Shown piece after piece: positions 19,281-26,790 of a stretch of 45,918 nt of DNA (position 1 is the stretch's first letter; each line of letters starts with the position of its first letter). The translations under genes and the position numbers were made by a program. Source of the DNA: Bacteroidia bacterium. GTDB lineage: Bacteria > Bacteroidota > Bacteroidia > NS11-12g > UBA9320. The DNA is taken from assembly GCA_013042025.1 (NCBI GenBank), contig JABDQY010000007.1, positions 1 to 45,918 of the forward strand. Reading direction: 5' to 3'. Below the pieces are notes generated by a model, which was not told where the DNA came from, made no database searches, and saw only the letters and a list, made by a program, of their open reading frames with translations.

Positions 19281-19807
19281 TCGATACGCTCAAATTCCAG
19301 TTCATCTCCAAGAAACCACATCCCATTTAGCTGAATTGCAACATATTTCAATTCGTATTCTTTCTTTCTTTTATTACACTGCACAGTAACATAACAATAC
19401 CTATTCCCATCCTCATCAGCTCCGTAATCAAAATCAGTTTTCTTATGATCTAAATGTCGCATTTTCAATTTATCTTTCTTCGCCTTTTTTAAAACTTTTA
19501 GGTACTGTCGTTGCAAACTTCTAAGCAACCTCTGCTGCCGAATAACCACTTTGTCCAAGGTATATTCTACAGACAAAGTATCAAAAGTTGTCTTTAAATA
19601 CCTCATCGTTGGAACAAAACTCTTAATCGTATTTACATCCTCCTTCTTTAATTGTGTGAAAAAAGAATCACACATTTCAGGTAATGAGTCAAACAACATT
19701 GGAGCAAATAAATTGCTATCAGGACGGTGATCCTTAAGTACATACAATTGTGAAAATGAAGAAAAGCTCACCCTAAACACAACCAATAAAACCAATGCAA
19801 CTCTCAT
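19277..19807 (-). CDS. hypothetical secreted protein
   Basis: 176 aa with signal peptide. ATGA stop/start overlap with the downstream WG-repeat gene at 19277-19280. Confidence 0.5.
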   Translation of the reverse strand: MRVALVLLVVFRVSFSSFSQLYVLKDHRPDSNLFAPMLFDSLPEMCDSFFTQLKKEDVNTIKSFVPTMRYLKTTFDTLSVEYTLDKVVIRQQRLLRSLQRQYLKVLKKAKKDKLKMRHLDHKKTDFDYGADEDGNRYCYVTVQCNKRKKEYELKYVAIQLNGMWFLGDELEFERIE

Positions 19808-19821
19808 TTCTATTTACACAG

Positions 19822-19829
19822 CAAATTTA
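19822..19829 (-). promoter_or_regulatory. candidate -7 box TAAATTTG
   Basis: Reverse complement matches TAnnTTTG exactly, 14 nt upstream of the ATG at 19807. Confidence 0.3.
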
Positions 19830-19940
19830 CGGCCAAAAAGTCTAGATAGTACTTGATTCTAAAAACATGACTTCTCTGTGCATCATTTTTTAAACCCCAA
19901 GTGTCTCTCCAAAGTACTGTTTAGTTTACCCAAGGATATA

Positions 19941-19975
19941 GGGTTGAAGGCAAACCTTCGACCCTTATCTTTTTC
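19941..19975 (+). terminator. orphan terminator-like hairpin (plus orientation)
   Basis: 10-bp stem gggttgaagg/ccttcgaccc (one G-U) with loop caaa, followed by ttatctttttc. No plus-strand gene ends upstream of it. Confidence 0.4.
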
Positions 19976-19997
19976 AAATTCGTTTCATTTTTCTAGT

Positions 19998-20005
19998 TAA
20001 GTTTG
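19998..20005 (+). promoter_or_regulatory. -7 promoter box TAAGTTTG for the metal-uptake operon
   Basis: Exact TAnnTTTG match, 4 nt upstream of the ATG at 20010. This is the same spacing as at dps. Confidence 0.35.
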
Positions 20006-20009
20006 CGGT

Positions 20010-20915
20010 ATGAGGAATATTCTTACCCTTATAACTGTAATTGCTATAGTTTTTTCAGGGTGCAAAACTGTTGAAGATGATGGCGTAACAACCATTGTAA
20101 CTACAACAGGAATTATAAAAGACTGCATAGAAAACATAGTAAGCGAAGACATAAAAGTGATCTCATTAATGGGAGCAGGTGTTGATCCACATTTGTACAA
20201 AGCCTCACAAGGAGATATCTCAAAACTTGCTAACGCCGACATTATAATTTACAATGGTCTCCATCTGGAAGGCAAAATGGCTCAGATGTTAGATAATTAT
20301 AGTAAATCAAAACCAGCATATGCTATTGGGAACTTTGTATCAAAAAATAGTCTCAAAAAAGTAGATGAAACCTCAGATTTAGTTGATCCGCATATTTGGT
20401 TTAATCCTGCAGTTTGGATGGAAGGATTAAACGGTGTAGCTGGAGAATTAAGCAAAATTGAGGGCTTAGAAACCACTGCTGCAAATTGCAGAAATTACAG
20501 TGAAGAAGTGGCTTCTATTTCGTCTGGTCTTACTCAATTGCTCGATTCCACATTGGACAACGAGAACAGAGTTTTAATTACAAGCCACGATGCATTTGAA
20601 TACTTTGGTGATGCATATAACTTTAGAGTTCGTGGATTACAAGGAATTTCAACAGCTGCGGAGTATGGTGCTAAAGATGTTAAAGACCTTATCGATTTTA
20701 TAATAGACAATAATATTAAGTCTGTGTTTGTTGAAACGAGTGTATCTGATAAAAATTTAAGGGCAGTTATTGAAGGAGCACAAGCACGAGATTATGAATT
20801 AAAAATTGGAGGAACCTTATACAGCGACGCTTTAGGAGCTGAGAAGACTCCTGCTGCTACATACATAGGAATGCTTCAGGCTAATGTTCATACGATAATT
20901 GAAGGATTGAAATAA
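20010..20915 (+). CDS. metal ABC transporter substrate-binding lipoprotein (TroA/ZnuA/MntC cluster-9 family)
   Basis: 301 aa with lipobox FSGC. Metal-ligand motifs DPHLY, DPHIWFNP, SHDAFEYF and ETSVSD give a His/His/His/Asp TroA-like set. No His-rich loop. Confidence 0.85.
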   Translation: MRNILTLITVIAIVFSGCKTVEDDGVTTIVTTTGIIKDCIENIVSEDIKVISLMGAGVDPHLYKASQGDISKLANADIIIYNGLHLEGKMAQMLDNYSKSKPAYAIGNFVSKNSLKKVDETSDLVDPHIWFNPAVWMEGLNGVAGELSKIEGLETTAANCRNYSEEVASISSGLTQLLDSTLDNENRVLITSHDAFEYFGDAYNFRVRGLQGISTAAEYGAKDVKDLIDFIIDNNIKSVFVETSVSDKNLRAVIEGAQARDYELKIGGTLYSDALGAEKTPAATYIGMLQANVHTIIEGLK

Positions 20916-21694
20916 TGATAGAGAATCCGATTATTGAAGCTCATAATTTAACAGTATTGTATGGTAGGAAACCAGCACTTTGGAACGTAGATTTTTCTCT
21001 TCCAAGAGGAAAAGTAATTGGAATTATGGGCCCAAACGGAAGTGGTAAAAGCACGCTGTTGAAAGCCATAATGGGCGTTGCAACTCCTACATCAGGTTAC
21101 ACAAAAGTATATGACAGAGAGCTTGATGAAGTTCGTGAAAAAATAAGTTATGTACCACAACGTCAAGACATTGATTGGGATTTCCCCGCAAGTGTTTGGG
21201 ACGTTGTTTCAATGGGTAGATTTCAAAAAAGAGGTCTTTTTAAAAAATTGACCTCAGAAGATAAGGATATTATTGCTGAGAGTCTTGAAAAGGTAAACAT
21301 GTTAGGATATTCGAAAAGGCAAATAAGTCAGCTGTCTGGGGGACAACAACAACGTGTTTTCTTAGCAAGAGCATTAGCCCAACAAGGAGATCTATTTCTT
21401 ATGGATGAACCTTTTGCAGGTGTTGACATTTCAACAGAAGAGATGATTATCTCGCTTTTAAAAGAGATGAAAGATGCAGGTAAAACATTGGTAATTGTAC
21501 ATCATGATTTACATACTGCCCAATCGTATTTTGATTGGTTGGTTTTACTTAATACGCGATTGGTTGCGGCAGGACCAGTTTCTGAGGTATTTAACGACCA
21601 GGTACTCACCGATACGTATGGTGGTAAACTAACAACCATATCAAAAATAAGTCAAGAACTAGAAAATAAAGAATTCCCAATACGTCACAAATAA
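20915..21694 (+). CDS. metal ABC transporter ATP-binding protein
   Basis: Walker A GPNGSGKST, signature LSGGQQQRV, Walker B LFLMDEPF. 1-nt start/stop overlaps on both sides. Confidence 0.9.
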   Translation: MIENPIIEAHNLTVLYGRKPALWNVDFSLPRGKVIGIMGPNGSGKSTLLKAIMGVATPTSGYTKVYDRELDEVREKISYVPQRQDIDWDFPASVWDVVSMGRFQKRGLFKKLTSEDKDIIAESLEKVNMLGYSKRQISQLSGGQQQRVFLARALAQQGDLFLMDEPFAGVDISTEEMIISLLKEMKDAGKTLVIVHHDLHTAQSYFDWLVLLNTRLVAAGPVSEVFNDQVLTDTYGGKLTTISKISQELENKEFPIRHK

Positions 21695-22983
21695 TGAATC
21701 TTTGGGAACATATCACCACATTTTTTTCTGTAGAAAACTACAACTTATTTGTTATCAGTATTGGTTCAGGTATTTTGTGTTTTGCAGCTGGTGTTGTGGG
21801 TACATTCACTTATTTGAGAAAACGAGCTTTAATTGGTGATGTTATATCTCATTCAGTGCTTCCAGGAGTTGCAATTGCTTTTATGTTAGCTGGAGTTAAA
21901 AATCCAGTTTACTTTTTAATTGGAGCTATTTTATCTGGGCTATTATCTATATGGATAGTTGATTTTGTACAAGCAAAATCAAAATTAAAACCAGATACAA
22001 TTTTAGCATTAACATTAAGTGTGTTTTTTGGTGTTGGAATTGTTTTGCTAACCAAAATACAACACAGCGGAAATGCGGCCCAAAGTGGTCTTGACAGTTT
22101 CCTGTTCGGGAAGGCTGCATCTATGAGTCTTGGAGATGTTAAACTTTTTTCAATCATAGCAATCGTCAATATCATATTCATTACTATATTCTTAAGAGGT
22201 TTTAGTATGATAAGTTTTGATGAAAATTATGCTAAAGGAATTGGGTTTAATACTACATTTATAAAGTCATTTCTTGCACTACTTACTGTAGTAACCGTTG
22301 CTATTGGAGTGCAAGCAGTTGGAGTAGTTCTAATGGCAGCATTACTAATAACTCCTGCGGCAGGTGCACGTTTCTTAACAAACTCGATAGGAAGAATGCT
22401 TTTAATTTCAGGGGTATTTGGATTTGTTAGTGGATGGATTGGAGTATTTATTAGTTATAGCGGGAACGGCATGCCTACTGGACCTTGGATTGTTGTTGCA
22501 CTATCGCTATTTACATTAATAGCCATTCTTTTTGGACGAGACAGAGGAGTAATTGCACGTTGGAAACTTCGAAAGTCGAATAACATAAAAATCAACAATG
22601 AAAATGTATTAAAAGATATTTATAAGTTGGCAGATAAAGGAAGGAATACGCTCTCAATTGCACAAATTATTGAAAAGGAGAAGTATCGAGCACCGGTTCT
22701 AATTTCAATTTTAAACAGACTAGAAAAAAACGACTTTATTGATCAAATTCGTGGGCTTGTTATTCTTAATGAAAAAGGTAAGATAGCGGCCAGAGAAGTA
22801 ATACGAAAGCACCGTCTATGGGAACTTTATCTTTCTAAATACTTTCAACTCGAAGCAGATCATTTGCATGATGATGCAGAAGGTATTGAGCACGTTATCA
22901 CACCGGAAATTGAAAAACATTTATTAAAACTGTTGCAGTATCCGGAGAAAGATCCTCATCAAAGTGAAATTCCATATGAATGA
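21694..22983 (+). CDS. metal ABC transporter permease (ABC-3/TroC-like) fused to a C-terminal DtxR/MntR-type metalloregulator domain
   Basis: 429 aa. The first ~290 aa are a multi-helix ABC-3 permease. Residues ~300-429 carry a winged-helix segment plus RKHRLWELYLSKYF...HLHDDAEGIEHVITPEI...PEKDPHQSEIP, which is the DtxR/MntR dimerisation/metal-site signature. Confidence 0.85.
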   Translation: MNLWEHITTFFSVENYNLFVISIGSGILCFAAGVVGTFTYLRKRALIGDVISHSVLPGVAIAFMLAGVKNPVYFLIGAILSGLLSIWIVDFVQAKSKLKPDTILALTLSVFFGVGIVLLTKIQHSGNAAQSGLDSFLFGKAASMSLGDVKLFSIIAIVNIIFITIFLRGFSMISFDENYAKGIGFNTTFIKSFLALLTVVTVAIGVQAVGVVLMAALLITPAAGARFLTNSIGRMLLISGVFGFVSGWIGVFISYSGNGMPTGPWIVVALSLFTLIAILFGRDRGVIARWKLRKSNNIKINNENVLKDIYKLADKGRNTLSIAQIIEKEKYRAPVLISILNRLEKNDFIDQIRGLVILNEKGKIAAREVIRKHRLWELYLSKYFQLEADHLHDDAEGIEHVITPEIEKHLLKLLQYPEKDPHQSEIPYE

Positions 22984-23836
22984 CTTTTATATCATATTTA
23001 CTGCAAGCTTGGTAGCGATAAACTGTGCATTAATGGGCAGTTTCTTAGTCATGCGAAAAATGGTTATGCTTGGAGATGCAATATCCCATGCTGTTCTTCC
23101 GGGAATATTTATTGCCTACTTTTTGTCTGGATCTACAGGAAGTCTTCCCATACTTATTGGAGCTGCATTTAGTGGAATAATCGCCACCTTGATAATTGAA
23201 TGGTTTACAAAACGGGCACGCTTACAAAGTGATGCGGCAATTGGTGTATCGTATACATTGTTGTTTGCAATCGGTATTATACTAATTTCTAAGTTTGGAC
23301 AAAATGCTGATTTAGATCAACAATGTGTACTGTACGGAGAAATTGAATATATCTCATTGTGGCTGAAGCCGGTTTTTGGATTATTCGAACTACCAAAACA
23401 AACTATAATCCTTCTGTCTGTTTGCATTATTTTAATTGCGGCAGTTGTATGGGGCTATAAAGGATTATTCATTACAACCTTCGATCCTAATTTTGCTTTG
23501 TCTACTGGAATAGCTGTAGGATTTTGGCACTATTTTTTAATGAGCGGAGTATCACTAACAACAGTAGTTTCATTTGAATCTGTTGGTGCAATTTTAGTAA
23601 TCGCATTTTTATCTGGACCTCCGGCAATTGCATATTTATTGGTAGAAGATTTTAAGAAAATGTTGATTCTTGCATGTGCTATAGGTATTTTATGTTCAGC
23701 ACTTGGCTATTATGCCGCTAAATGGTTAGACGTATCGGTTGCAGGATCAATATCAACAGTAATTGGATTGGTCTTTGTTTTCGTATTTGTTGCCGTTAAT
23801 TTACTTAAAAGTAAAAGGGACGTAATATCTGCCTAA
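22964..23836 (+). CDS. metal ABC transporter permease (ABC-3/TroD-like)
   Basis: 290 aa with about 8-9 hydrophobic helices; paralogous to the N-terminal part of the preceding gene. Alternative ATG at 22976 gives an ATGAATGA overlap. Confidence 0.85.
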   Translation: MKFHMNDFYIIFTASLVAINCALMGSFLVMRKMVMLGDAISHAVLPGIFIAYFLSGSTGSLPILIGAAFSGIIATLIIEWFTKRARLQSDAAIGVSYTLLFAIGIILISKFGQNADLDQQCVLYGEIEYISLWLKPVFGLFELPKQTIILLSVCIILIAAVVWGYKGLFITTFDPNFALSTGIAVGFWHYFLMSGVSLTTVVSFESVGAILVIAFLSGPPAIAYLLVEDFKKMLILACAIGILCSALGYYAAKWLDVSVAGSISTVIGLVFVFVFVAVNLLKSKRDVISA

Positions 23837-23869
23837 AATTATTGTCAATAAGCCTTTTATGTTCATACA

Positions 23870-23893
23870 AATAATAGACTTAGTCCTATTATT
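23870..23893. promoter_or_regulatory. AT-rich inverted repeat, possible operator
   Basis: aataatag-N8-ctattatt; the inner gac/gtc extends the pairing with one bulge. Lies in the 84-bp gap between the second permease gene and the receptor-like gene. Confidence 0.3.
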
Positions 23894-23920
23894 GTATGTA
23901 AACAGATTAGGTTAAGATTA

Positions 23921-25792
23921 GTGAGAATTTTCCGAAACATACTACTTTCAGTTTTCGTTATGTTTTGCTTTAAAAGTGAGGCAAATGATTCTACTTCTTT
24001 TTTTAGTTTTAACCGAGAGCAAATACAAGCTTTAAATAGTCAAAATCTTTTTGATCTTATGCAACACACTCCATTTATTCATCGTTTTGTTAGCGAAAAT
24101 GAATCTTTTGTGAATGGAGGAATCTTAAGCGATCAGCAAATAGCTATTTATAAAAACGGGTTTCCTCTATTAATGGATCAAAACGTCACTTACTCTCTGC
24201 AGAATATTCCATTATGGGACATTGATGAAGTAACCATATCCATTTCTGAGTTTAATACAATAAACAAAAACAACGGAGGATTAACAATCCATATGTATTC
24301 TTCCGACACTTTTATAGCACCTTATTCTATTAAAACATCTGTTACTTCTGGGAGTTTGAACGACATTCACAGCAGTATCACGGCTGACTTAAGTAATGTC
24401 AAACACAATTTATCAATAGGTGGAAATAGAAGTTTCGAATCGAGTTATACCAATGACACTTCAAAACGACATTCTCCATGGGCTGCTTCTGAACGATATG
24501 ATTTAGATCTTCGTTATCAATATCATATACTATCAAGTGTCCAACTCAACCTATATTCTGACAACAGTTGGATAGAAAAACAGATTAAAGGAGATGTAAT
24601 TGCGGGTACCTCTAGAGCAAAGGACCAGGTTAAAAAGTATCAAAAGAATAGCCATTATGGAATACTTAAATCCGCTCTTTCTAAAAATCATTCTCTTAGC
24701 CTCTTAGGCCAATTTACATCCCTCTCTCATAAAGATTTAATTTATAATAAAGACCTTTCAAATCTTAATGAAATGGTTAGTGATGAAAATGAAAATCTTG
24801 ATACATTAAGTTACAACAACACCTTTATGCAGCTTAATTTAAACGGAAACTATAGGCACTATGGATTTGATGTTGGAATAGAATTATCAAACACCAATGA
24901 TAAAGTTTATTCAAGCATCAATGGAATTAAAACTGCTTATTCGGATTATTCGGCGTATGGTTTATTTCATTATCAGTACAAGAATGGATTTAAAGTTGAA
25001 GCAGGGTCAAAATTTTTAACAAATAGTTTATCTGGAAGTTACTTACTTCCACAAGCAAGAATAATTCTTGCTCCCTCAAAAATTCTTCAGCTAAATGTTT
25101 CCTATAATAGATCTATATCTTATCCTAATTTTCAAAATATTTTCTACCCAGATAGAATTACTGAAGTTACAAATAATATCCTACTTGAACCAACAATACT
25201 TAGCTCGTATAATTTTCATTTAGATATAAAGAAAAACCATTACTCATTTAAAAGTGGCCTTCTCTATACACAGCAAGCCGGAATACCTGTGGTGAGCGAA
25301 GGAGCTTACATAAATTCTAGAGTTAGTGGAGGTTCCGCAACATACTTTAGTTTTACCTACAAGAAGAACGAAAATCTTATCCGACCCAGTTTTATACTCC
25401 ATGGCTTAAACTTTTCAAAAGACAGCATAAATCAAAACTTCTTTTATCCAGAGCTCAATTTTTATAGCCAAACAACAATACCAAAGTTAGATATTAAAGT
25501 TTTCTTAACCGCTCGATTCTTAGGTAAATACTCTGACATGCGATTTGAAGAAGGGAAAGTTGTAATTCAAGAAATACAGAACACACCTCAACTTCATATT
25601 GCCATTCGTAAAGATTTAATGAAAGATAGATTTGCGGTTCTTTTTGGAGTAAACAATATCCTAGATAACTCTTCTCTAGAAGCAAACACTTTTGAACTCA
25701 CTGAATTTAGTAAGATCTTGCTTTCAAATTCTAATGTATTGAGCTCAAGGAAACGAAACATATTTTTAACCTTAAAAATTAATTTGTTGTGA
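23921..25792 (+). CDS. divergent TonB-dependent-receptor-like outer-membrane barrel
   Basis: 623 aa with GTG start and a signal peptide. The N-terminal ~110 aa resemble a degenerate plug (..NLFDLMQHTPFIHRF...IAIYKNGFPL...WDIDEVTISI...GGLTIHMYS). The remainder is rich in Y/S/N beta-strand pattern. No clear TonB box, and the C-terminus ends in L rather than F. Confidence 0.45.
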   Translation: MRIFRNILLSVFVMFCFKSEANDSTSFFSFNREQIQALNSQNLFDLMQHTPFIHRFVSENESFVNGGILSDQQIAIYKNGFPLLMDQNVTYSLQNIPLWDIDEVTISISEFNTINKNNGGLTIHMYSSDTFIAPYSIKTSVTSGSLNDIHSSITADLSNVKHNLSIGGNRSFESSYTNDTSKRHSPWAASERYDLDLRYQYHILSSVQLNLYSDNSWIEKQIKGDVIAGTSRAKDQVKKYQKNSHYGILKSALSKNHSLSLLGQFTSLSHKDLIYNKDLSNLNEMVSDENENLDTLSYNNTFMQLNLNGNYRHYGFDVGIELSNTNDKVYSSINGIKTAYSDYSAYGLFHYQYKNGFKVEAGSKFLTNSLSGSYLLPQARIILAPSKILQLNVSYNRSISYPNFQNIFYPDRITEVTNNILLEPTILSSYNFHLDIKKNHYSFKSGLLYTQQAGIPVVSEGAYINSRVSGGSATYFSFTYKKNENLIRPSFILHGLNFSKDSINQNFFYPELNFYSQTTIPKLDIKVFLTARFLGKYSDMRFEEGKVVIQEIQNTPQLHIAIRKDLMKDRFAVLFGVNNILDNSSLEANTFELTEFSKILLSNSNVLSSRKRNIFLTLKINLL

Positions 25793-26790
25793 GATCTCTT
25801 AAATTTTTTCTAATTGTTCTCGTGTTTTCTGGGTGCTTTGAACCAGATCGTCAGATAGCTGCTCCATTAGCCAACGAGGTACTACTCACATCAGATGTTA
25901 CTAGCAACCAAGCTGTTTATCTAAACCTGAGTCATCAGAACATAGAACTAGACCCATTTGATAAAAAATGGCATCTTAAATTTCAAAATGCAAAAAACGG
26001 CTGGTCTATTTACATGAATCCGTTGGAAAATGTAGCAATCCATCAAACTACAATTACTAATTTTGACGCAGTAGATTCAACTTTCAATCTTGTTGGCTTA
26101 AAATGGCTTATTGATGCACCTACTTCAAAAGGAGCTTACCCTGCTTTTGCGGGCTGGGGTGACTTTAATTTTAGCACACCTAAATCATTTAAAAATGTAT
26201 ACATCCTACGTCTAAAAAATGACATTACTGCAATTTTCTATAAAGTTCAAGTGTTGGATGCCAGCGACGATGCCTATCGTATTCGATACGCATCCTTAAA
26301 TGGGGATATTGACCATACCGTAACAGTAAACAAAGATGAATTGTATACTCATTCGTTTCTCCGACTTGCATCCGAACCTGTACAACCTAAAGTTGAACCA
26401 AAGAAAAATGATTGGGACTTATGTCTTACATTTATAGCAGACTCTATCACCAAACAGGGTAATTTACCGTTTCTTCCTACCATAAACGATTATTATGGTG
26501 TGTACCAAGCGTTGCTAATTAACAATGATTACAACAAAATTGCCATTGATAGTATCCATTCCTTCGACGAGATTGATTTTTTTAAGACTCAATCACTAAT
26601 TTTTAATTCCAGAGACCAACTACACAGTGTACTAATTGATTGGGACGAAGTCAATTTACAAGCAACAATATCAACAGACAATTTTCTGATTGTACAAAAA
26701 AACGATAGTTATTACGCCATTAAATCACAGCGAATAACCGGTAATTATCCTATCGACTTTGACTTAGAATTGATTATTAAAACCCTCTAG
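25789..26790 (+). CDS. HmuY-like lipoprotein (tentative)
   Basis: 333 aa with lipobox FSGC. W-x-L-K-F (KKWHLKFQN) and DWDLCLTF motifs recall the WD(L/I)xF repeats of HmuY-family proteins. GTGA start/stop overlap with the receptor-like gene. Confidence 0.4.
   Translation: MRSLKFFLIVLVFSGCFEPDRQIAAPLANEVLLTSDVTSNQAVYLNLSHQNIELDPFDKKWHLKFQNAKNGWSIYMNPLENVAIHQTTITNFDAVDSTFNLVGLKWLIDAPTSKGAYPAFAGWGDFNFSTPKSFKNVYILRLKNDITAIFYKVQVLDASDDAYRIRYASLNGDIDHTVTVNKDELYTHSFLRLASEPVQPKVEPKKNDWDLCLTFIADSITKQGNLPFLPTINDYYGVYQALLINNDYNKIAIDSIHSFDEIDFFKTQSLIFNSRDQLHSVLIDWDEVNLQATISTDNFLIVQKNDSYYAIKSQRITGNYPIDFDLELIIKTL

Follow-up and report, generated by a model that had tools for sequence, protein, structure and literature searches.

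A metal-uptake operon in the 45,918-nucleotide stretch of DNA analysed here (the window) contains a gene that reads as a membrane permease at one end and as a DNA-binding-type metal sensor at the other, raising the questions of whether such a gene is real and of what its attached sensor does. The gene (21694–22983, + strand) was confirmed to be a single uninterrupted 429-codon open reading frame. Pfam placed an ABC-3 domain at residues 22–280 (E 2.4e-59) and the Fe_dep_repr_C domain (PF02742) at residues 360–427 (E 3.3e-23, above the gathering cut-off), and the NCBIfam DtxR and MntR profiles matched residues 302–427 with scores under their equivalog cut-offs. PF01325 gave no scoring match, but the corresponding region still aligns to DtxR/SloR residues 4–65, and a phmmer search against the PDB aligned residues 301–427 almost without gaps to SloR 4–130 and DtxR 7–133. 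An AlphaFold2 model of the whole protein (pLDDT 83.7) matched PsaC (7kyp) over its permease part, with a TM-score on the target of 0.86–0.88, and DR2539, SloR, and IdeR over its sensor part, with a TM-score of about 0.8 and an rmsd of 1.6–2.4 Å. Both halves of the original domain assignment, a TroC-type permease followed by a DtxR/MntR-type regulator, were thus recovered by profile and by fold.

The protein could be divided into four parts. The ABC-3/TroC/YtgC-like permease part (residues 1–281; 21694–22536) has about eight transmembrane helices by homology to PsaC, the last of which, TM8 in numbering by analogy with PsaC, spans residues 262–280. It is followed by a connector (residues 282–302; 22537–22599), a basic helix of fixed length that runs into DtxR helix 1, and by a winged helix-turn-helix of DtxR/MntR type (residues 303–359; 22600–22770), assigned from the alignment to solved structures and from the model, where the helix-turn-helix and wing are folded with a pLDDT of 85–91. 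Within it, helix 1 carries E303, N304, and K307, the recognition helix lies at about residues 333–345, and the wing occupies residues 349–358. The metal-binding and dimerization domain (residues 360–429, with the stop codon; 22771–22983) completes the sensor, which has no third (SH3/FeoA) domain. The motifs by which the sensor had been recognized lie at residues 371–380 (RKHRLWELYL), 390–400 (HLHDDAEGIEH, with the E-x-x-E-H ligands), and 420–427 (DPHQSEIP). Through the alignment to DtxR and SloR, nine metal ligands were mapped, comprising N304, E396, E399, and H400; H373, E377, and H392; and D420 and H422. Among 63 diverse fused representatives, H373, E377, H392, E399, H400, and H422 were present in all 63, and N304, E396, and D420 in 57–62, and both metal sites are intact by sequence. 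Degeneration of key residues, which had been named as a possible objection, therefore does not apply to the metal ligands; the DNA-contact positions are not conserved, the recognition helix being poorly conserved among fused proteins. Basic residues on that helix, the positive charge, and the hydrophobic core are nevertheless kept across phyla, and the net charge of the winged helix is +2 in this protein, compared with a family mean of +3.3.

Since the gene comes from a fragmented metagenome bin (324 contigs), we considered whether troC and a distinct troR-like gene had been run together by a missed stop codon or a frameshift. In the source study's Logan contigs, 22300–22626 and 22694–23100 are covered with zero differences, including the fusion junction (22540–22626); these contigs leave a gap at 22627–22693 and are not independent raw reads. 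The comparison with other genomes was decisive. Among the best 120 of 4530 homologues, both domains were found and nearly all proteins (>100) were full length, with 49–95% identity, alongside a few shorter fragments, one of which lacked PF02742. The fusion is present at 80 genome loci from Bacteroidota, and within the window's genus a frame of 415–455 amino acids holding the sensor domain was found in 25 of 27 genomes. The single frame was seen in many independent assemblies, including complete chromosomes and the cultured Roseivirga pacifica and Thermoflexibacter ruber. Because the fusion is conserved across homologues, loci, and genus genomes, an assembly or frameshift artefact can be dismissed with near certainty, and the gene truly joins a Tro-type permease subunit to a complete DtxR/MntR-type metal sensor.

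The gene order agrees with the Tro-like operon proposed earlier, and the order binding protein, ATPase, fusion, second permease, with starts at 20010, 20915, 21694, and 22976, is kept at nearly all of the 80 loci. The first gene (20010–20915, +) encodes a TroA-like substrate-binding lipoprotein (Pfam ZnuA, E 5.1e-64), which among proteins of solved structure is most closely related to TroA of Treponema pallidum (E 5.5e-63); the DPH, DPH, HDAF, and SDA ligand motifs of the two align. The second (20915–21694, +) encodes a TroB/YtgB-like ABC ATPase of 259 amino acids, conserved in the 80 loci, in which ABC_tran (residues 24–168) stands alone, without an extra C-terminal regulatory domain. The TroD/YtgD-like second permease (22976–23836, +) has no sensor tail; the start in the ORF listing is GTG 22964, but its relatives align from residue 5 on, beginning directly past the fusion stop, and its likely start is therefore ATG 22976, which overlaps the end of the fusion gene by 8 nt (ATGAATGA). 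As the transporter is a heterodimer of the two permeases, each complex carries one sensor domain. Downstream lie a TonB-dependent-receptor-like gene (23921–25792, +; Pfam Plug, E 6.5e-6) and a lipoprotein gene (25789–26790, +), both syntenic with the operon in closer relatives; the pair follows the operon in most of the loci L003–L018 and also in L021, L022, L024–L026, L078, and L079.

The fusion itself is not new, having been known in Chlamydia since 2011–2012, and it is widespread. The same fusion, with its neighbours in the same order, is found in Chlamydia trachomatis as YtgC-YtgR (CT069), and permease-repressor fusions have been noted in 11 phyla (PMC5599777, PMC7755916); the earlier expectation that either proposed mode of action would be mechanistically unusual for this family overlooks this published precedent. 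Like our protein, YtgC-YtgR (CT069/CTL0325, in ytgABCD) combines an ABC-3 permease, a DtxR-like winged helix, and a metal domain in one ORF, lies in the order ytgA-ytgB-ytgC(R)-ytgD with a plain second permease, and conserves the DtxR metal ligands. The likeness by sequence was established with environmental Chlamydiota proteins standing in for CT069: residues 22–427 of the fusion are collinear with a protein from Protochlamydia sp. W-9 that has the same architecture (33% identity, E 4e-80), and the organism-named relatives in the Protochlamydia query group belong to Chlamydiota or Verrucomicrobia (Chlamydiales, Parachlamydiaceae, Verrucomicrobia). We therefore class the gene, on its sequence, as a permease-metalloregulator of the YtgC-YtgR type, an architecture known from Chlamydia and common in Bacteroidota. 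The differences are that the chlamydial proteins exceed ours in length by about 20 residues and have insertions in the permease; that cleavage, DNA binding, and an operator have been shown for Chlamydia only; that other Bacteroidota relatives often add a free DtxR regulator in the same operon; and that Chlamydia is obligate intracellular, whereas the host here, a member of the Bacteroidia, is free-living and comes from beach sand.

Comparison with other systems placed the sensor more closely. The troABCD-troR operons of T. pallidum and T. denticola share with this one the TroA-type binding protein and its ligand motifs, a pair of ABC-3 permeases, and a DtxR-type regulator of two domains that lacks an SH3 tail, but TroR is separate, soluble, and encoded after troD, whereas here the module is fused to the first permease, before troD. 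SloR (5cvi), DR2539 (8pvt), IdeR, DtxR, and Bacillus subtilis MntR share its fold over an ungapped alignment of about 127 residues, with ligands of both the primary and the ancillary site present. The position of DtxR Cys102 is Glu, as in Mn-type members, and the D-P-H motif matches SloR C123 and H125, while the position of DtxR Met10 and SloR Asp7 is Asn. Unlike these repressors, which are free homodimers, the fused module is anchored to the membrane via its N-terminus, lacks a third domain, and occurs once per transporter, the partner permease having none.

Two features of the fused proteins bear on how the module works. In 288 of 295 fused proteins, drawn from Bacteroidota, Chlamydiota/Verrucomicrobiota, and diverse clusters, the PTGP motif and the E-N ligand motif lie exactly 42 residues apart, while the length of the winged helix varies among the same proteins by up to 26 residues. 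The connector has no gaps in alignment A1 and shows no hint of a cleavage site, and in the AlphaFold2 model a continuous helix (residues 286–312) joins the turn after TM8 to the helix bearing the ligand N304. An internal translation start that would yield the free domain was considered and rejected, there being no Met or in-frame start near the junction; relatives do show a Met at residue 290, but it is not conserved. The other feature emerged from loci that also have a free regulator. At 24 of 81 loci, a separate DtxR regulator of 217–226 amino acids heads the same operon, and these loci still keep the fused domain with intact ligands. The operator of the free regulator (TTTAGA-N4-TCTAAA) reached 12 of 14 matches in 19 of these 24 loci, against 0.2 expected, and it tracks the free DtxR gene, not the fusion. 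In the 24 genomes having both proteins, conservation of the metal domain was similar (0.69 fused, 0.74 free), whereas that of the recognition helix was 0.39 in fused and 0.68 in free proteins; constraint on this helix is relaxed in the fused protein relative to the free paralogue of the same genomes. The difference appeared only in this paired comparison: in a cruder one, of 63 fused with 19 short free representatives, some of which may be fragments, the winged-helix ratios were similar (0.49 fused, 0.55 free).

The operon is preceded by a -7 promoter box, TAAGTTTG (TAnnTTTG; 19998–20005, +), which we take to be of the Bacteroidota type from established knowledge of Bacteroidetes promoters. 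It ends 4 nt before the ATG, so the mRNA would be leaderless or nearly so, and its position is conserved in all 11 aligned upstream regions of the clade. The upstream region as a whole was matched in 1 of 27 genus genomes and is thus not conserved even within the genus. Inverted repeats examined in 19780–20040 and 23800–23960 revealed no operator for the window's clade, and a palindrome scan of 66 upstream regions yielded no conserved palindrome for it. When the 11 close upstream regions were aligned and the permease-receptor intergenic regions compared, only Bacteroidota -7 boxes were conserved, including a TAnnATTG box between permease and receptor genes. The TTTAGA-N4-TCTAAA operator, conserved in other clades, is absent from the window's operon; its 8 matches in the window at up to 2 mismatches were rejected against 8.65 expected, as were its only two perfect copies in the genome, both inside long ORFs. 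No operator was found in the clades that have the fusion only.

Our best guess, by analogy and with a probability of roughly 0.5, is that the fused domain is a YtgR-like repressor. On this proposal, rising cytoplasmic Mn, Fe, or Zn would be bound by the fused domain, with the metal held between helix 1 (E303, N304) and the second domain (E396, E399, H400; also H373, E377, H392, D420, H422), and the metal-bound domain would exert negative feedback on the importer. By the most likely route, it would pair with a second copy, bind DNA, and repress the operon and perhaps other genes, either after proteolytic release or possibly while still tethered, the latter being one of the two alternatives of the sequence-only reading. 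Release is a third alternative, absent from that reading, and follows from the finding that the C-terminal domain of C. trachomatis YtgC-YtgR is released by cleavage and represses in an Fe-dependent manner (PMC5599777, PMC7755916); with metal-dependent binding to the ytg promoter, repression of a reporter, and cleavage from YtgC both in vivo and in E. coli (PMC5599777, PMC7755916, PMC6504234), it is the best documented of the three. The retained winged-helix fold, core, and basic residues are consistent with a repressor, as is the source genome (90.8% complete), which has no other PF02742 domain and one Fur-family gene, leaving the fused domain as the only DtxR-family protein for the repressor job. 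The fused module also has close two-domain relatives that are soluble, so it can function without a membrane anchor. Against a YtgR-like repressor stand the lack of a conserved palindrome at the operon or receptor promoter in the window's clade, an operator in other clades that follows the free DtxR instead, the weakly conserved recognition helix, the single sensor domain per heterodimeric transporter, the lack of an internal start, and a fixed-length, apparently helical connector unlike the usual protease-accessible tether. A local autoregulator with one target can, on the other hand, let its recognition helix and operator change in step, which would account for a missing conserved operator and weakens the case for the main competitor.

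That competitor, which we regard as possible but distinctly less probable, is that the domain stays on the permease without acting on DNA, and that metal shuts the importer when the cytoplasm is replete, either by shifting the rigid connector and so TM8 or by parking the domain against the ATPases. The fixed 42-residue spacing beside a variable winged helix, the modelled continuous helix, the relaxed recognition helix, the failure to find an operator in fusion-only clades, and the retention of a ligand-bearing fused domain beside a free regulator with its own operator all point this way. The counterarguments are that DNA binding and repression have been shown by experiment for the homologous chlamydial domain, that the entire winged helix with its basic residues is kept over very long evolutionary distances, and that the cruder comparison showed no special winged-helix loss in fused proteins. 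The effect would be trans-inhibition, as the sequence-only reading had suggested, and the connector and recognition helix lend that part some comparative support. Its model, MetNI/ModBC, is alike in concept, in that the substrate, once imported, is bound by a cytoplasmic domain through which the importer could be shut down, but those systems have paired regulatory domains on two ATPases; because the domain here, of a DNA-binding-type fold, belongs to a single permease of a heterodimer rather than to paired ATPases, the parts differ and a MetNI/ModBC-like working is impossible. A regulator may also dock at the membrane, for which Mlc-PtsG is the model: the tethered domain would heterodimerize with the soluble DtxR paralogue and so link the state of the transporter to the amount of free repressor. 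Coexistence of fusion and free regulator in many genomes, often within one operon, would suit such docking, as would the soluble relative P0123, in which the recognition helix is of the free type (ASSVTDMYKKL) and the second domain is near-identical to the fused type of the window's genus; yet no free DtxR-family gene was found in the window's genome or in 19 of 25 fusion-carrying genus genomes, and we consider docking improbable here. For free-living Bacteroidota in general, it is conceivable, though we tend to doubt it, that the fused module is a rigidly coupled sensor that gates the importer directly or docks the free paralogue, and is not primarily a released repressor.

A released YtgR-like repressor and a built-in gate could be told apart by means of the 42-residue connector, the relaxed recognition helix, and the co-resident free regulator with its operator. 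The family is abundant among cultivable free-living Bacteroidota; carriers such as R. pacifica and T. ruber suit ordinary genetics and biochemistry, and could be used to address questions that come from obligate intracellular Chlamydia, namely by what means, if at all, the repressor is set free and whether the fusion has a further role at the membrane. If gating or docking were true, the system would represent post-translational feedback on an ABC importer via its transmembrane subunit, by means of a recycled transcription-factor fold.

Upstream of the operon, a search for a riboswitch or leader gave no Rfam match in the window or in locus L022. A terminator-like hairpin, AGGGTTGAAGG-CAAA-CCTTCGACCCT followed by a T-run (19940–19975, +; fold z-score -3.7), lies just upstream of the operon promoter, with no + strand gene upstream of it. 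Hairpins occur at the equivalent position in L002, L005, and L006, where the stem sequences differ.

The junction between an ABC-3 metal permease and a DtxR/MntR-type domain, read from the sequence alone as a single in-frame fusion, was borne out by domain and fold analyses. One ORF on the forward strand (21694–22983) runs for 429 codons without interruption, and an HMM scan with Pfam detected both an ABC-3 domain (residues 22–280, E 2.4e-59) and an iron-dependent-repressor metal-binding and dimerisation domain (residues 360–427, E 3.3e-23). The NCBIfam DtxR and MntR profiles aligned residues 302–427, with scores under their equivalog cut-offs. In a phmmer search of residues 296–429 against the PDB, residues 301–427 aligned almost without gaps to SloR 4–130 and DtxR 7–133, and likewise to IdeR, DR2539, ScaR, and MntR, indicating that the C-terminal module (the tail) is a complete two-domain DtxR/MntR core and not the C-terminal half alone. 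An AlphaFold2 model built with 19 homologues as input (pLDDT 83.7) placed the final transmembrane helix at residues 262–280, a continuous helix including DtxR helix 1 after a short turn (286–312), and the recognition helix at 333–345, together with helix 2, a wing of two strands, and the second domain's long helices. Using Foldseek, the front part of the model matched PsaC, an Mn permease (TM-score on target 0.86–0.88), and the tail matched DR2539, SloR, IdeR, and DtxR (TM-score about 0.8, rmsd 1.6–2.4 Å).

The metal ligands of the tail were intact on alignment. By phmmer, fusion N304, E396, E399, and H400 correspond to DtxR M10, C102, E105, and H106 and to SloR D7, E99, E102, and H103; H373, E377, and H392 correspond to DtxR H79, E83, and H98, and D420 and H422 to SloR C123 and H125. 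Among 63 diverse fused proteins (50%-identity cluster representatives), H373, E377, H392, E399, H400, and H422 were invariant (63/63), and N304, E396, and D420 were retained in 57–62. The ligands would all be oxygen or nitrogen donors, with Glu replacing Cys102, suggesting a likeness to Mn-type members; published work on the metal selectivity of DtxR and MntR lies behind reading Glu at this position as Mn-type.

The fusion is the third gene of a four-gene operon, preceded by a TroA-like binding lipoprotein (20010–20915; closest solved structure Treponema pallidum TroA, E 5.5e-63, with ligand motifs aligned) and an ATPase (20915–21694), and followed by a second, tail-less ABC-3 permease, whose likely ATG at 22976 gives an 8-nt overlap with the fusion's end. 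A TAnnTTTG promoter box lies 4–5 nt upstream of the binding-protein ATG in 11/11 aligned relatives (window 19998–20012), a proximity that implies a leaderless operon mRNA. Downstream are a TonB-dependent-receptor-like gene and then a lipoprotein gene, both syntenic in closer relatives. The AT-rich intergenic region upstream of the receptor-like gene (23837–23920) contains TTATTGTCAATAA as well as an inverted repeat, AATAATAG-N8-CTATTATT; the only parts conserved among its counterparts in relatives are a box, TA(T/A)NATTG(T/C)A, and a TGTCA block, so these elements look like a promoter, not an operator.

The fusion is neither an artefact nor rare. Source-study contigs in Logan span the junction with zero differences, and the Logan contigs holding the window's sequence originate from beach-sand metagenomes. 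Both domains were present in the best 120 of 4530 homologues (49–95% identity, nearly all full length, with a few shorter fragments), except for one fragment without PF02742. Species-representative genomes contained at least 503 motif-bearing stretches, of which the best 80 were all from Bacteroidota (among them Roseivirga pacifica, Roseivirga sp. E12, Thermoflexibacter ruber, and Xanthovirga aplysinae). Each of the 80 has the fusion, and the four-gene order is kept at nearly every locus with sufficient flank. Orthologues of related genomes also keep the single frame, in 25/27 other genomes of the window's genus and 8/9 from the family's other genera; it was found in 0/24 genomes of the sister family, which have only free DtxR proteins of 215–267 aa. 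One genome of the family (G036:C18:25023–25187) has an in-frame TGA inside the fused frame, and in one of the genus (G003) the domain is divided between contigs C42 and C97; these cases may be pseudogenes or an effect of contig ends.

The architecture is already known, and the expectation that it would be unusual for this family did not hold. In Chlamydia trachomatis YtgC-YtgR, an ABC-3 permease carries a DtxR-like domain at its C-terminus. Binding of this domain to the ytg promoter depends on metal; the domain represses reporters, and it is separated from the permease by cleavage, both during infection and in E. coli. Fusions of this kind have been reported from 11 phyla (PMC5599777, PMC7755916, PMC6504234). 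When the tail was searched against the whole library, it mostly matched the C-termini of 410–470 aa proteins, one group of which includes proteins named Chlamydiia, Parachlamydiaceae, Protochlamydia, and Verrucomicrobia. The Protochlamydia protein is collinear with the fusion over residues 22–427 (33% identity, E 4e-80), and the operon has the gene order of ytgABCD. The window's fusion thus belongs to the YtgC-YtgR type.

The sequence-only reading proposed two roles, a tethered metalloregulator and a gate that trans-inhibits the importer. We give a YtgR-like repressor, released or tethered, a probability of roughly one half. The repressor role would agree with the experimentally shown activity of the chlamydial homologue and with the winged-helix fold and core residues, which fused domains retain across phyla, as they do a net positive charge (mean +3.3) and basic residues in the recognition helix. 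The window's genome (90.8% complete) encodes no further DtxR-family domain and one Fur-family gene. That the tail is instead a direct sensor or gate on the importer is possible but rather unlikely; four patterns leave room for it. In 24/81 loci (Cytophagales-type, among L031–L077; for example, 1512–2171 in the R. pacifica locus L046), an extra free DtxR gene (217–226 aa) lies directly upstream of the binding-protein gene, heading the operon that also encodes the fusion. A palindromic TTTTAGA-N4-TCTAAA(A/T) box (≥12/14 matches, mostly 25–73 nt upstream of the free DtxR start) was found in 19 of these 24 loci (0.2 expected from shuffles), and upstream of the binding-protein gene in 9 further loci (0.5 expected), where 8/9 genomes have a free DtxR gene; it is absent from the operon of the window and its clade. 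The operator tracks the free regulator.

The second pattern is in the helices. The free recognition helix, AS(V/I)(S/T)DM.KKL, is well conserved, and in the 24 genomes with both forms mean pairwise identity was 0.68 for free versus 0.39 for fused recognition helices and 0.89 versus 0.65 for helix 1, with the metal-binding domain about equally conserved (0.74 versus 0.69); the fused winged helix appears to be under less constraint. Moreover, the distance from the PTGP motif (TM8 start) to the E-N ligand motif (helix 1) was exactly 42 residues in 288/295 fused proteins drawn from all groups sampled; winged-helix length, by contrast, ranged from 52 to 78 residues. Finally, the transporter pairs two unlike permeases as a heterodimer, giving a single sensor domain per complex. 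These patterns are compatible with a stiff mechanical coupling of the sensor to the pore, and also with a local autoregulator in which the helix drifts in step with its sole operator. Docking of the free regulator, or some other role, is in each case highly improbable. Carriers of the fusion include cultivable Bacteroidota.

A soluble two-domain DtxR relative in the representative library (P0123, 134 aa) combines a free-type recognition helix (ASSVTDMYKKL) with a second domain that hardly differs from the fused type found in the window's genus (RKHRLWEIYLSKYFQLDADHLHDDAEGIEH), a mix that hints at possible exchange between fused and free copies or a common dimer interface.

Upstream of the operon, a region of about 100 nt in the window (19846–19980) lies between the divergent promoter and the -7 box of the operon itself; it ends in an 11–18 bp hairpin and a T-run (fold z-score -3.7) and is conserved, within the genus, in a single further genome (G008, 83%). 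At the equivalent position, three fusion loci (L002, L005, L006) carry hairpins whose stems differ. The window's region is analogous in place, and unrelated in sequence, to an element of about 75 nt conserved in one Bacteroidia clade, where it always lies directly upstream of the Tro-like operon (L020, L022 [2125–2222], L024, L025, L026, L078, L079, and L098–L104). An Rfam search gave no match to this element, which may be either a small RNA or a leader that regulates in cis. It occurs once per genome and consists of GTTTTCTTACGAC-N10-TTAATTGGTTTTACGAC, the hairpin CAGCCGAC-GNRA-GTCGGCTG, and a U-run, with compensatory stem changes in L079/L103, L102, and L104.
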